Origin: Candidatus Sulfomarinibacteraceae bacterium
GTDB lineage: Bacteria > Acidobacteriota > Thermoanaerobaculia > Thermoanaerobaculales > Sulfomarinibacteraceae
Reading direction: 5' to 3'
Assembly: GCA_963823345.1 (NCBI GenBank)
Contig: CAWGLE010000004.1
Coordinates: forward strand, 513,166 to 577,165
Length of the DNA stretch: 64,000 nucleotides
The notes beneath the pieces are model-generated. The model was not told the DNA's origin, did no database searches, and was given only the letters and a program-made list of their open reading frames with translations. A program made the translations under genes and the position numbers. Below are positions 45,330 to 48,358 of the stretch, piece by piece. Each line of letters starts with the position of its first letter. Position 1 is the stretch's first letter.

Positions 45330-46016
45330 ATGGACGAGCACCGTAACGACGACGAGGTTGAGCGAGAGCCAGAAGCCCCGGCCGCGGAGAAGCCCGCACC
45401 GCAGAAACCGGTGGCGGCCGATGTCTTTGCGGTCCCGCCTGCGACCGGCAAGGAGGCGTGGCGCGGCGGGTCGGGTTGCGGGCCCCGGGCCAAGATCTAC
45501 GTCATGATCGTCGGGGTGGCGGGTCTGGTCGCGATCCTTCTCGTCGGTCTGTCGGTCCTGCGCCGCGGGGTGTGGGTGACGATGGACCAGGGCCGCCAGG
45601 CGGTGGTGCAGAACCTGCCGTTCGACCTCCCGCCGGCCGAGCGCCAGCGCATCATCAAGAACCTCGATCGGTTCCGGGCCCTCCTCGAAGCCTCCGACGA
45701 TCCCTACCCGGTCATGGGTGAGTTCATGACGCGGGTGCGGGCGGTCCTGAGAGACGGCCGCCTCACGGTCGACGAGGTCAGCGGGCTCAGCGTCTATATC
45801 GAGAGGGTGATCGAGGAGTCGGGGATACCACCGCTGCAGCTCGGATTTCGGATTTCGGATTTCGGATTTCGGATTGCCACCCTGCCACCCCCTTCCATGC
45901 AGCTGCTCGAGGATGACTGTGCAGCCGATTTCCTCCACCACCAGCGGAGCCTTCTGAGCCGGGGGAGGGTGGACGGGAAATCCGAAATCCGAAATCCGAA
46001 ATCCGAAATTTCATGA
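45330..46016 (+). CDS. Hypothetical single-pass membrane protein; C-terminus read from a heptamer-repeat element
   Basis: 228-aa ORF with [24 protein letters not shown]. From ~45836 the frame runs through (GGATTTC)n and (GAAATCC)n (..[13 protein letters not shown]...[12 protein letters not shown]). The stop overlaps the uvrB ATG. Confidence 0.5.
45843..46011. repeat. Inverted pair of 7-mer arrays (GGATTTC)5 ... (GAAATCC)5 enclosing ~100 bp
   Basis: 45843-45877 and 45977-46011 are reverse complements of each other. The second ends 1 nt before the uvrB ATG. Confidence 0.8.
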
Positions 46017-48025
46017 CCTCTTCCCGTTTCACCCTCAAAACACCTTTCGAGCCCGCCGGCGACCAGGTGCAGGCGATCGAGAAGCTGGTGGAGGGGGTGG
46101 ACGGCGGGGTCGCCTTCCAGACCCTGCTCGGGGTCACCGGTTCGGGCAAGACCTTCACCATGGCCAAGGTGATCGAGGCGACCAACCGGCCGACCCTGGT
46201 GCTCAGCCACAACAAGACCCTGGCCGCCCAGCTCTACCAGGAGTTCAGGGCCTTCTTCCCCGACAACGCGGTGGAGTACTTCGTCTCCTACTACGACTAC
46301 TACCAGCCCGAGGCCTACGTGCCGACCAGCGACACCTTCATCGAGAAGGAGACCTCGATCAACGAGGAGATCGACCGCATGCGCCTGTCGGCCACGCGGT
46401 CGCTCTTCGAGCGCCGCGATGTCCTGATCGTGGCCTCGGTGAGCTGCATCTACGGTCTCGGGTCGCCCGAGGCGTACTTCGGCATGCTGCAGCTGTTCGA
46501 GAAGGACCGGGAGGAGCCGCTCGACGACATCCTCCGCCAGCTCGCCAAGATGCAGTACGAGCGCACCCACCTCGACCTCGCCCCCGGGTCGTTCCGGCTG
46601 CGCGGCGACACGCTGGAGATCTACCCACCCTACGACGACACCGCCGTGCGGATCTCGTTCTGGGGCGACCAGGTGGAGAAGATCGAGCGCATCGACCCGG
46701 TGCGCGGTGCGGTGGTGGAGGAGCTGGAGCGGCTCCCGATCTACCCGCGGACCCACTACGTGACCCCACGCTCGCAGCTGTTGAAGGCGATCGACGGGAT
46801 CCGCGTCGAGCTCGACGAGCGGCTGACCGAGCTCAACGCCCAGGACAAGCTGCTCGAGGCGCAGCGGCTCGCACAGCGCACCAACTTCGACCTCGAGATG
46901 CTGACCGAGCTCGGCTACTGCTCGGGCATCGAGAACTACTCGCGCCACCTCACCGGGCGTCTGGCGGGCGAACCGCCGCCGACCCTGCTCGATTACTTCC
47001 CGGACGATTTCCTGTGCATCATCGACGAGTCGCACGTCACGGTGCCGCAGGTCGGCGGGATGTTCCACGGCGACCGTTCGCGCAAACAGACGCTGGTGGA
47101 CTTCGGCTTCCGCCTGCCGTCGGCCCTCGACAACCGGCCACTGATGTTCGAGGAGTTCGAGCAACGCATCCGCCAGGTGGTCTTCGTGTCGGCGACCCCC
47201 GGGCCCTACGAGCTCGAACACAGCGAAGGTGAGGTGGTGGAGCAGCTGATCCGGCCCACCGGGCTGCTCGATCCGCAGGTCGAGGTGCGGCCGGCGGCGC
47301 ACCAGGTGGACGATCTGCTGGCGGAGATCCGCGAGGTCGTGGCGCGCGGCGAACGGGTCCTCGTCACCACCCTGACCAAACGCATGGCCGAAGACCTCAG
47401 CGCCTATCTGGCCGAGGTCGACGTGCGGGTCCGCTATCTCCACTCGGAGATCAAGACCCTCGAACGGTCGGCCATCCTCGCCGATCTGCGCAAGGGAGAG
47501 TTCGACGTCCTGGTGGGGATCAACCTGCTCCGGGAGGGCCTCGATCTGCCCGAGGTGTCGCTGGTGGCGATCCTCGATGCCGACCAGGAGGGCTTTCTGC
47601 GCTCCGAGACCTCACTCATCCAGACCATCGGCCGCGCCGCGAGAAATCTGGAGGGGAAGGCGATTCTCTACGCCGACCGGGAGACGGGCTCGATGCAGCG
47701 GGCGCTTTCGGAGACCCGCCGCCGGCGCGCACGACAGGCCGAGTACAACGCCGAGCACGGCATCGAGCCGAAGAGCATCATCAAGGACGTGGCGAGCCCG
47801 CTGCTGGCCATGGCCGAGCTCGACTTCTACGGCCCCGGCTCGAGGCTGATGCGGGTGGCCGACGACGACGACGGCATGCCGGAGGACGGTGTCTCACTCA
47901 GCAAGCTCATCACCGAGCTCGAGAAACGGATGCGGATGGCCGCCAAGAACCTCGAGTTCGAAGAGGCCGCGCGCCTCCGCGACCGGCTCAAGGAACTCAG
48001 AAGGCAGCAAATCTACAAGAGCTGA
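46013..48025 (+). CDS. uvrB: Excinuclease ABC subunit B
   Basis: 670 aa; ..[14 protein letters not shown].., beta-hairpin region, helicase motifs, C-terminal UVR domain ..[17 protein letters not shown]... Confidence 0.95.
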
Positions 48026-48358
48026 ATTTCGGATTTCGGATTTCGGATTTCGGATTTTCCACCCATCCACCCCACACGTGTCCTCCCGTGCTATCCAGAG
48101 CCCCAATGGGGCAGGGTCAGCGTTCGATGACGACGCGGATTCCTGCAGTGCGCAGCGATGCGATTGCGGTCCACTCGCCAGCAGCGATACTGAAGGTGGG
48201 CCAAGGCCCACCCTACTTCGGACCAACAGATTGAGCGGACTGGTAGGGTGGGCTTCAGCCCACCTTCAGAGTCTCCTCGGGCCGGGTTTGGATGACATTC
48301 AGCTGGAGGAGGGCGGCAGGGTTTCCGAAATCCGAAATTCGAAATCCGAAATTCGAAA
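48024..48358. repeat. Second inverted pair of 7-mer arrays enclosing ~265 bp that contains a REPIN
   Basis: (GGATTTC)5 at 48024-48058 overlaps the uvrB stop. (TCCGAAA/TTCGAAA)5 at 48324-48358 ends 8 nt from the antiporter stop. Confidence 0.8.
48195..48264. repeat. REPIN type 1, copy 3 (heads inward)
   Basis: GGTGGGCCaaGGCCCACCCTAC -26 nt- GTAGGGTGGGCttcagCCCACC. Confidence 0.75.

Follow-up and report, generated by a model that had tools for sequence, protein, structure and literature searches.

The gene uvrB in a 64,000-nucleotide stretch (hereafter the window) of contig CAWGLE010000004.1 from a Candidatus Sulfomarinibacteraceae bacterium (phylum Acidobacteriota) is flanked at both ends by pairs of inverted heptameric repeat arrays, and these two pairs, each with the sequence enclosed between its arrays (here called a module), are the subject of the present analysis. 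Module 1 joins uvrB to an upstream open reading frame (ORF) for a hypothetical protein without any Pfam match, and module 2 lies between uvrB and a convergent gene for a Na+/Ca2+ exchanger. The locus comprises the following features (window coordinates).

45290–45306, plus strand: degenerate (GAAATCC)n remnant upstream of the putative ORF promoter, with a matching remnant in the related locus L122.
45318–45323, plus strand: TACAAT, a −10-like box 6 nt before the ATG of the upstream ORF and a candidate promoter element.
45330–46016, plus strand: upstream ORF, 228 amino acids; the conserved part ends at 45842, and the last 57 amino acids and the stop are encoded by module 1.
45841–45877, plus strand: array A1, (GGATTTC)4 followed by GGATTGC, G/U-rich on the sense strand and translated within the upstream ORF.
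45877–45897, plus strand: C-box CCACCCTGCCACCCCCTTCC, predicted to pair with the G-box; similar C-boxes come after arrays at other loci in Thermoanaerobaculia.
45898–45960, plus strand: variable loop of module 1, unalignable between close relatives.
45961–45977, plus strand: G-box GGGGGAGGGTGGACGGG.
45977–46012, plus strand: array A2, (GAAATCC)4 followed by GAAATTTC, an A-rich, G-poor leader reaching the uvrB ATG and translated within the upstream ORF.
46013–48025, plus strand: uvrB, 670 amino acids; its ATG overlaps the TGA of the upstream ORF as ATGA (46013–46016).
48024–48058, plus strand: array A3, GAATTTC(GGATTTC)3GGATTTT, whose first base is the G of the uvrB stop TGA (48023–48025).
48059–48075, plus strand: C-box CCACCCATCCACCCCAC.
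48177–48282, no strand assigned: doublet of repetitive extragenic palindromes (REPs) of the GTAGGGTGGGC family, lying within the module 2 loop, with arms at 48177–48216 and 48243–48282.
48305–48321, plus strand: G-box GGAGGAGGGCGGCAGGG.
48324–48360, minus strand: array A4, reading (GRATTTC)5 on the minus strand and beginning 6 nt past the stop of the convergent exchanger gene.
48367–49353, minus strand: Na+/Ca2+ exchanger gene (Pfam Na_Ca_ex), convergent to uvrB, start uncertain.

The two inverted pairs had been described in a first-pass annotation made from the sequence alone, and all four of their arrays are confirmed by Tandem Repeats Finder. It reports A1 (45841–45875) as 5.0 copies of the period-7 unit TCGGATT, A2 (45977–46009) as 4.7 copies of GAAATCC running into GAAATTTC before the uvrB ATG, A3 (48026–48057) as 4.6 copies, each with 100% matches, and A4 (48324–48359) as 5.1 copies, or as a 14-mer alternating GAAATCC and GAAATTC with 100% matches. 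The gap between arrays is 99 nt in module 1 and 266 nt in module 2. All four are AT-rich islands in a window with a GC content of 65.6%, and GGATTTCGGATTTC, with at most one mismatch allowed, matches 17 times in the window compared with 0.04 matches expected from shuffled sequences. Further particulars of the first-pass annotation proved accurate, too: the upstream ORF does read through pair 1, from which it takes its C-terminus and stop, to terminate on the uvrB start; pair 2 does begin inside the uvrB stop codon; and the nested element reported within it, a REP doublet forming a hairpin (REPIN), is real.

Seen together, the modules exhibit a common architecture. On the sense strand, an array of about five G/U-rich units (consensus GRAWTKH) is followed by a C-box, a variable loop that sometimes contains a REP doublet, a G-box and an array of about five A/C-rich units; the second array is usually the complement of the first, and the module fills the entire gap between two genes. 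The arms (arrays plus boxes) of the window modules are inverted, terminal and 79–97% complementary, because complementarity reaches past the heptamers into the C-rich box after the first array and the G-rich box before the second. This extension also makes A2 and A3, the arrays flanking uvrB itself, 90% complementary over 49 nt.

To place the locus in a comparative context, metagenomes were scanned using residues 1–171 of the upstream ORF, its conserved part, as a query, yielding 19 loci (L120–L138) from marine and estuarine sediments with 50–86% identity over the best segment; these relatives and the window make up the 20 loci used in all junction counts below. A protein search with the upstream ORF added 113 homologues, all at least 46% identical, of which the named ones come from metagenome-assembled genomes (MAGs) of Acidobacteriota or Thermoanaerobaculales. 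The gene order is kept: isochorismatase (minus strand), ORF (plus), uvrB (plus), Na_Ca_ex (minus) and Omp85 (minus). The syntenic 670-amino-acid UvrB orthologue of a further relative, L140, matches the Pfam domains ResIII, UvrB_inter, UvrB and UVR.

The module between the ORF and uvrB is present in every relative. In 19 of 19, the conserved protein ends with ...EESGIPxxQL and is followed by array 1, C-box, loop, G-box, array 2 and the uvrB ATG; Q170 and L171 are nearly invariant among the ORF homologues, the tails diverge past these two residues, and array-derived peptide tails occur in about 84 of the 113 homologues. The first-pass annotation had contemplated orthologues with the same C-terminal sequence but free of repeats; what the orthologues have in common is the position and the repeat architecture, and not the C-terminal sequence. 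The unit sequence varies (GGATTTC, GAATTTC, GGAATTC and GGAATTA/GGAATGA in array 1; GAAATCC, GAAATTC, GAATTCC, TAATTCC, TCATTCC, AAACTCA and AAATTCA in array 2), while the array length in the window and its 19 relatives is held within a narrow range of 25–37 nt, mostly 31–35 nt or about five units. At the 3' end of uvrB, the gap to the exchanger gene is filled with a module in all six loci reaching that far (the window, L130/L131, L134, L137, L138 and L140), and the differing units covary between the arms, such as TTCTCAA with TTGAGAA in L137 or GGAATGA with TCATTCC in L130. The occurrence of modules at both sites across the relatives shows that they are ancient in position, and a recent insertion is thus rejected. 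A module kept at a fixed position across more than 100 lineages goes beyond what we found reported for this class of heptamer repeats.

Reduced forms of the first module do exist. Short tails characterize 11 of about 95 homologues; in L140 an in-frame TGA falls within array 1, and in L139 (4000–4040) the module has collapsed, with the ORF ending as ...EESGIPNPDS* within a C-orientation array that is degenerate and about 30 nt long (GGAATTCCAAATCCTGACTCCTGATTCCTAATTCAT). The ORF stop in L139 lies 13 nt before the uvrB ATG, and array 2 alone is retained, directly before the ATG. A deletion between the two arms, sparing the leader array, seems to have produced the collapse. Arrays also differ in their retention further upstream: a full G-box (GGGTGGGTGGGTGG, a canonical motif of the G-quadruplex (G4) type) with a GAAATCC-type array precedes the ORF promoter in L120, L128–L132 and L140 (positions 242–273 in L120, 1442–1475 in L128, 3915–3947 in L129 and 3425–3470 in L140). 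Since the window and L122 have only a remnant there, arrays are apparently gained or decay at orthologous sites.

Counted from the QL codons to the base preceding the uvrB ATG, module length equals 2 modulo 3 in 18 of the 20 loci, although it takes seven distinct values (110, 113, 116, 119, 122, 125 and 170 nt); the probability of this pattern arising by chance is approximately (1/3)^6, assuming independent lengths. Frame 0 is devoid of stops in 17 of the 20 loci, and all 17 of these read-through loci (the window and 16 of the 19 relatives) exhibit the ATGA overlap. Where the ORF stops inside array 2 (L135, L137, L138 and L139), the context of the uvrB start is ATGG or ATGT, and L140, with its stop in array 1, is the sole early-stop locus retaining ATGA. 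The tails of the homologues end at array 2 and none extends into uvrB. The modulo-3 rule, the covariation of ATGA with read-through and the tail ends together indicate that ribosomes move through the module and that selection acts on termination at the uvrB start. The frame constraint also implies translation of module 1 and, with it, transcription.

As had been observed for the window, where neither GGAG nor GAGG occurs within 20 nt upstream of the ATG, no Shine-Dalgarno sequence precedes uvrB in any of the 20 loci; the last 35 nt of the leader have an average composition of A.38, C.26, G.08 and T.28, compared with a genomic G of.33. Upstream of the ORF, the arrangement TACAAT-N6-ATG recurs in the window and 19 of 19 relatives (with a GTG start in L129 and L132), and its conservation points to a leaderless mRNA for the ORF–uvrB pair. 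A scan of 44500–49600 did not detect any consensus sigma-70 promoter.

The module type does not track the phylogeny of the flanks. The DNA of L125 and L126 is 97–100% identical up to the module edges, yet the modules are 170 and 122 nt long, respectively, and differ in units, spacers and right arms; over 400-nt flanks the two loci are 94–96% identical, whereas their modules are 34% identical. Likewise, both flanks of L133 and L135 are 96% identical and the modules 49%. The opposite situation is represented by L128 and L133, which are only 68% identical in the upstream flank and 86% in uvrB, yet have 113-nt modules with 85% identity. The types of array 1, spacer and array 2 assort semi-independently. 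Modules therefore turn over by wholesale replacement, i.e. by an allele- or cassette-like exchange at a fixed site, with a limited set of alleles common to the lineages regardless of the flanks.

The modules are predicted to fold into very stable structures. Module 1 has a predicted folding energy of −90.2 kcal/mol (z −7.6), and module 2 of −180.2 kcal/mol (z −9.0) and −172.6 kcal/mol (z −7.8) for the two strands, with the arrays forming the closing stem on both; the notion that each pair is a very long potential stem-loop is thus borne out. A single long predicted hairpin with paired arrays (z −2.1 to −9.2) is obtained for 16 of the 20 ORF–uvrB junctions, while the remaining four (L121, L126, L132 and L136), with right arms of the AAACTCA or AAATTCA type, keep mainly a central GC-rich stem and leave array 2 largely single-stranded. 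Among the 84 homologues that could be classified, the types of array 1 and array 2 are complementary in 59 (T/t in 32, K/k in 17 and A/a in 10) and non-complementary in 25. A search against Rfam 15 returned no family at the gathering score, only miRNA-precursor noise at 22–28 bits compared with thresholds of 80–90.

Further copies in the genome had been anticipated, and five more AT-rich arrays with 7–8-nt units indeed lie at gene ends elsewhere in the window (6158–6202, 6319–6352, 31718–31752, 44676–44707 and 49348–49388), belonging to the following features.

6158–6352, no strand assigned: module between convergent genes, consisting of an array, a C-box, a REP-like doublet (approximately 6215–6300), a G-box and an array.
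31718–31752, minus strand: solo (GGATTTC)4.9 array, the fifth with this unit in the window, directly after a minus-strand stop codon, with a REP doublet next to it.
44676–44707, minus strand: AATTCAA-type array overlapping the TAA stop of an isochorismatase-family gene (44706–45260, minus strand).
49348–49388, minus strand: self-complementary GTTCAAAC/AACGTT array filling the gap from the stop of an Omp85/BamA gene (49390) to the start of the Na+/Ca2+ exchanger gene.

In the first of these, the left array (6158–6202) is of the AACGTT type and includes the TAG stop of the gene at 5227–6171, and the right array (6319–6352; GAATTCC/TAATTCC) overlaps the TGA of the minus-strand gene at 6351–8033. 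The G-box GGGAGGGTGGGTGGG adjoining the latter array (6303–6317) is a perfect G3N1G3N1G3N1G3 quadruplex motif, and the C-box CACCTCCGCCGCAC (6204–6217), which includes an anti-Shine-Dalgarno-like CACCTCC, is found verbatim in L121–L127 and L140. The window arrays at 6158, 6352, 31752, 44707, 48024, 48360 and 49388 all set in between −11 and +6 nt from a stop codon and point away from the gene.

The window also contains two families of REPs arranged as inverted doublets, GTAGGGTGGGC(TTCA)GCCCACC and GTAGGCGGG..CCCGCC. The doublet at 48177–48282 belongs to the same family as those at 1481–1577 and 10331–10427, but its GTAGG ends point inward, whereas theirs point outward; further doublets lie at 16579–16648 and 31586–31690. 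Some doublets are nested in or adjoin heptamer modules (48177–48282 in the loop of module 2, one beside the 31718 array, and the REP-like doublet around 6215–6300). Two other features deserve a brief mention. A motif of about 45 nt, GACATGTAGGC[CG]GG.GTGCC.GCGAC.GTGCC.CCGCCCTCGGTCTCCTG, occurs on the plus strand at 25207, 30969, 35713 and 41454, spaced by about 5 kb, and the copies at 25207 and 30969 are inside candidate minus-strand ORFs, which suggests a paralogous gene family. Immediately upstream of the uvrB neighbourhood (44015–44646) is a pair of genes for a VapB/MazE-type antitoxin (AbrB-like, 79 amino acids) and a PIN-domain toxin (131 amino acids).

Arrays of this type are not restricted to the relatives of the window. 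A scan of genome contigs for (GGATTTC) arrays of at least three units identified at least 119 loci (L001–L119), which belong to MAGs labelled as Verrucomicrobiota, Planctomycetota, Thermoanaerobaculia/Sulfomarinibacteraceae, Pyrinomonadaceae, Chloroflexota, Bacteroidota, Gemmatimonadota and others. None of the loci listed is the window itself (no megablast hits). These arrays have up to 13 units (L109, Phycisphaeraceae), frequently adjoin the sister units GGATTGC or GGATTTG, and are often organized as array, loop and inverted array, with a convergent partner in 30 cases and a divergent one in nine. Their orientation relative to ORFs obeys the rule found in the window: stop codons preceding an array are on the same strand in 30 cases and on the opposite strand in 17; arrays before start codons are in the C-orientation in 19 cases and in the G-orientation in nine. 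In L049, L063, L083, L086 and L109 the arrays are located at contig ends, so they probably break assemblies.

With moderate confidence, we interpret the uvrB pairs as two cases of a class of gene-boundary hairpin modules held at both sites throughout a Thermoanaerobaculales-type (Acidobacteriota) lineage, the upstream module coupling translation and the downstream one serving as a 3' hairpin. The leaderless upstream ORF and uvrB would be carried on a single transcript, on which ribosomes would translate array 1, the boxes and array 2 before terminating at the AUGA shared with the start of uvrB. Array 2 would act as an A-rich, G-poor leader allowing Shine-Dalgarno-independent initiation, locked in most alleles by pairing with array 1. 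A ribosome arriving from upstream would melt the hairpin sequestering this leader and would be delivered for reinitiation, and the translation of uvrB would thereby be coupled to that of the upstream ORF. The downstream module would be transcribed from both sides and form a very stable 3' hairpin common to uvrB and the convergent exchanger gene, possibly defining or protecting their 3' ends. Transcription of the modules, translational coupling, locking of the hairpin and the role in 3'-end formation are all what we infer from the patterns described above.

Several observations weigh against this interpretation. The open frame 0 is a weak signal, as many units lack stops in any frame and an open frame therefore says little; for this reason we rely instead on the modulo-3 lengths and the ATGA covariation. 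Coupling is absent in about 10% of the homologues, which stop in array 1 (L140) or have a collapsed module (L139), so uvrB can be expressed without read-through. In about 30% of the lineages the arms are non-complementary (array 2 being of the AAACTCA or AAATTCA type), meaning that pairing of the arrays is not essential. The distribution of G–U versus A–C mismatches provides no strand signal, the single independent case in favour of sense RNA (L128/L130) being offset by a single one in favour of antisense (L134), and the complementarity of the arms could hence reflect homogenization of palindromes at the DNA level instead of selection on RNA. No terminator-like site (a G+C-rich stem followed by a T-run) was detected in 44500–49600, and the 3' arm of the modules is A/C-rich without a T-run after it, so the modules do not look like canonical intrinsic (Rho-independent) terminators. 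Finally, a single function as RNA hairpins does not suit the solo arrays (31718 and 44676) or those located upstream of a promoter.

What other explanations could account for the modules? That whole modules differ between strains with 94–100% identical flanks means that something moves, and the first-pass annotation had proposed a miniature inverted-repeat transposable element (MITE): a selfish or foldback element with heptamer arrays as terminal inverted repeats would have been inserted at both ends of uvrB, overwriting the native 3' end of the upstream ORF. The inverted, terminal and largely complementary arms, the presence of several copies in the window, and the (GGATTTC)n arrays scattered in many genomes, about one fifth of them with an inverted partner, are all in keeping with such an element. 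However, there is no target-site duplication at either pair (the flanks CAGCTC and ATGACC of pair 1 and AGCTGA and TCCCGC of pair 2 include no direct repeat), the interiors (45898–45960, 48076–48304 and 6203–6302) are unrelated, with only the arrays and the C/G-rich boxes common to the uvrB pairs, and the arms are non-complementary in about 30% of the lineages. No empty site was encountered in the 20 DNA loci or the 113 protein homologues, the reduced forms being internal collapses or early stops; the modules are always delimited by stop or start codons, with no conserved target motif visible; and no transposase was noticed beside the modules, though no search aimed at transposases was made. 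We therefore regard a MITE as improbable. A non-adaptive origin, although still unlikely in our view, deserves more credence: the modules may be a by-product of slippage and template switching beside GC-rich hairpins and G4-like boxes, combined with quasi-palindrome correction between the arms, with selection purging only variants harmful to the neighbours, such as those that bring a wrong frame or lose the uvrB start. In many bacteria the commonest long simple-sequence repeats are heptamers, for which polymerase slippage has been held responsible (Mrazek 2007, as cited in PMC4679880 and PMC4692102). The lack of a consistent sense-strand G–U signal and the partial dispensability of the arrays in L139 agree with such an origin, and avoidance of harm alone can explain the frame constraint. 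It accounts less readily for an array length that stays at about five units across all lineages and sites, a restricted vocabulary of units common to lineages whose flanking protein is only about 50% identical, a module more conserved than the coding flank (L128 versus L133), a consistent orientation relative to genes and near-universal retention at two sites.

The AT-rich arrays, alone or together with the G-boxes, may alternatively act at the level of duplex or extruded DNA, as binding sites for a nucleoid or regulatory protein, enhancers similar to UP elements, formers of cruciforms or G4 structures, or supercoiling insulators around uvrB. The arrays stand out as AT-rich islands in a genome with 66% GC, in relatives an array with the G4-type box GGGTGGGTGGGTGG occupies roughly the −35 to −70 region of the ORF promoter, and the analogous repeats of Xanthomonas fold into G4 and i-motif structures in vitro (PMC4692102). 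Against this speak the strand-specific orientation relative to gene direction, which binding sites in a duplex do not need, the uvrB units with only GG or G together with uvrB G-boxes lacking four GGG tracts, and the lack of conservation of the unit sequence at a given site, which argues against a sequence-specific binder; on balance such a role seems rather unlikely. The by-product origin and a DNA-level role nevertheless both remain live alternatives. Far less credible is a phase-variation switch, in which the gain or loss of one unit in array 1 would shift the frame of the upstream ORF and toggle the coupled translation of uvrB, and with it the repair capacity. A 7-nt unit in a translated region does shift the frame by +1 or −1, heptamer repeats are behind phase variation in Haemophilus, and truncated tails are seen in 11 of about 95 homologues, but the truncations stem from unit substitutions or collapse and not from changes in unit number, which is nearly constant at about five across relatives, and arrays also occur in untranslated gaps. 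Two further ideas were dropped. An analogy to integron attC sites was rejected, as uvrB and its neighbours are in conserved synteny and there is no GTTRRRY core; and CsrA (GGA motifs), Hfq and RNase E (RN|WUU) were set aside as readers of the arrays, since the GAATTTC and AACGTT units lack GGA.

As regards systems described before, transcribed hairpin-forming intergenic elements located at gene ends, with the position kept and the composition varying, are well represented by REP/BIME, ERIC, Correia/NEMIS and the Rickettsia RPE, and some RPE and Correia elements supply C-termini or are translated in frame. All these families have an element-wide consensus, and Correia elements and other MITEs also have target-site duplications, whereas the modules described here have only periodicity and composition in common and their arms are tandem arrays. 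A different kind of likeness is to overlapping genes coupled through AUGA, which similarly combine a stop/start overlap and a downstream gene without a Shine-Dalgarno sequence with a start region in a structure that an upstream ribosome may be able to melt; unlike such genes, the last 110–170 nt of the upstream ORF here are a hypervariable repeat hairpin, and coupling is missing from a minority of the relatives.

It has been known since 2007 that heptamer repeats are over-represented beside bacterial genes. Our literature search found no heptamer repeats in Acidobacteria, and searches with the array strings gave irrelevant matches only. The class to which the uvrB modules are closest is that described by Rehm et al. 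(2015; PLoS One 10:e0144275; PMC4692102) in Xanthomonas and Nostoc, with GGGAATC and GGGGA(C/T)T heptamers that are overwhelmingly intergenic and preferentially organized in about four units. These repeats lie 0–50 bp after stops or overlap them on the coding strand, with the complement just upstream of starts, and form 70–75 convergent inverted pairs per Xanthomonas genome (PMC4692102). They occupy the same gene gaps in Xcc and Xac with extensive variation in length and sequence, are transcribed, are not associated with insertion sequences and are of unknown function (PMC4692102). The acidobacterial arrays resemble them in the GGAAT/GGATT core (GGGAATC rotated reads GGAATCG; the units here include GGAATTC and GGATTTC), in a small preferred number of units (four there, about five here), and in having the G-orientation near stops, the complement near starts, convergent pairs and variation at the same site. 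They differ in the units themselves: instead of a G4-forming GGG unit, those found here (GGATTTC, GAATTTC, GGAATTC and GGAATKA) contain at most GG, so the arrays cannot form a three-tetrad G4, and a G4-like potential resides only in the separate adjacent G-boxes. Moreover, several unit types coexist in one genome here, the arms with the C- and G-boxes fill the whole intergenic gap, one of the modules is part of a translated ORF tail ending in ATGA on the next gene, and flank-decoupled swapping of alleles, not reported there, is documented here in an acidobacterial host. The positional fixation, the flank-decoupled exchange and the frame-constrained read-through ORF ending on the start of a uvrB without a Shine-Dalgarno sequence thus go beyond what we found reported for the class.

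Array 2 before uvrB also fits the description of the TAACTGA direct repeats of marine Beggiatoaceae, which MacGregor (2015; PMC4679880) discussed together with the cyanobacterial short tandemly repeated repetitive (STRR) heptamers. These occur as 2–6 units a few nucleotides upstream of starts of genes without canonical ribosome-binding sites, and a post-transcriptional or translational role has been proposed for them (PMC4679880); the likeness consists in start-proximal heptamers and the missing ribosome-binding site. The TAACTGA repeats are nearly all direct (with one indirect set), have a single unit sequence and lack the GC-rich boxes and the read-through ORF that distinguish the modules described here.

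A much broader generalization can be imagined, namely that arrays with the GGAWT core are pan-bacterial exchangeable gene-boundary modules acting at the RNA level, and that in the lineage studied here a dedicated recombination process swaps entire hairpin cassettes exactly at stop and start codons, maintaining trans-lineage alleles that would determine how uvrB and other housekeeping genes are coupled in translation and form their 3' ends. We consider this speculative and unlikely. The more than 100 natural variants of one module at a fixed site, including complementary, non-complementary, early-stop and collapsed forms, constitute a natural allelic series, and module alleles that move independently of their flanks call for a mechanism of exchange. 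A practical consequence concerns annotation, as gene callers will keep listing the repeat-derived C-terminal tails as protein sequence. The indications of ribosome transit through the module point to an RNA-level role that may couple a DNA-repair gene devoid of a Shine-Dalgarno sequence to a leaderless ORF.

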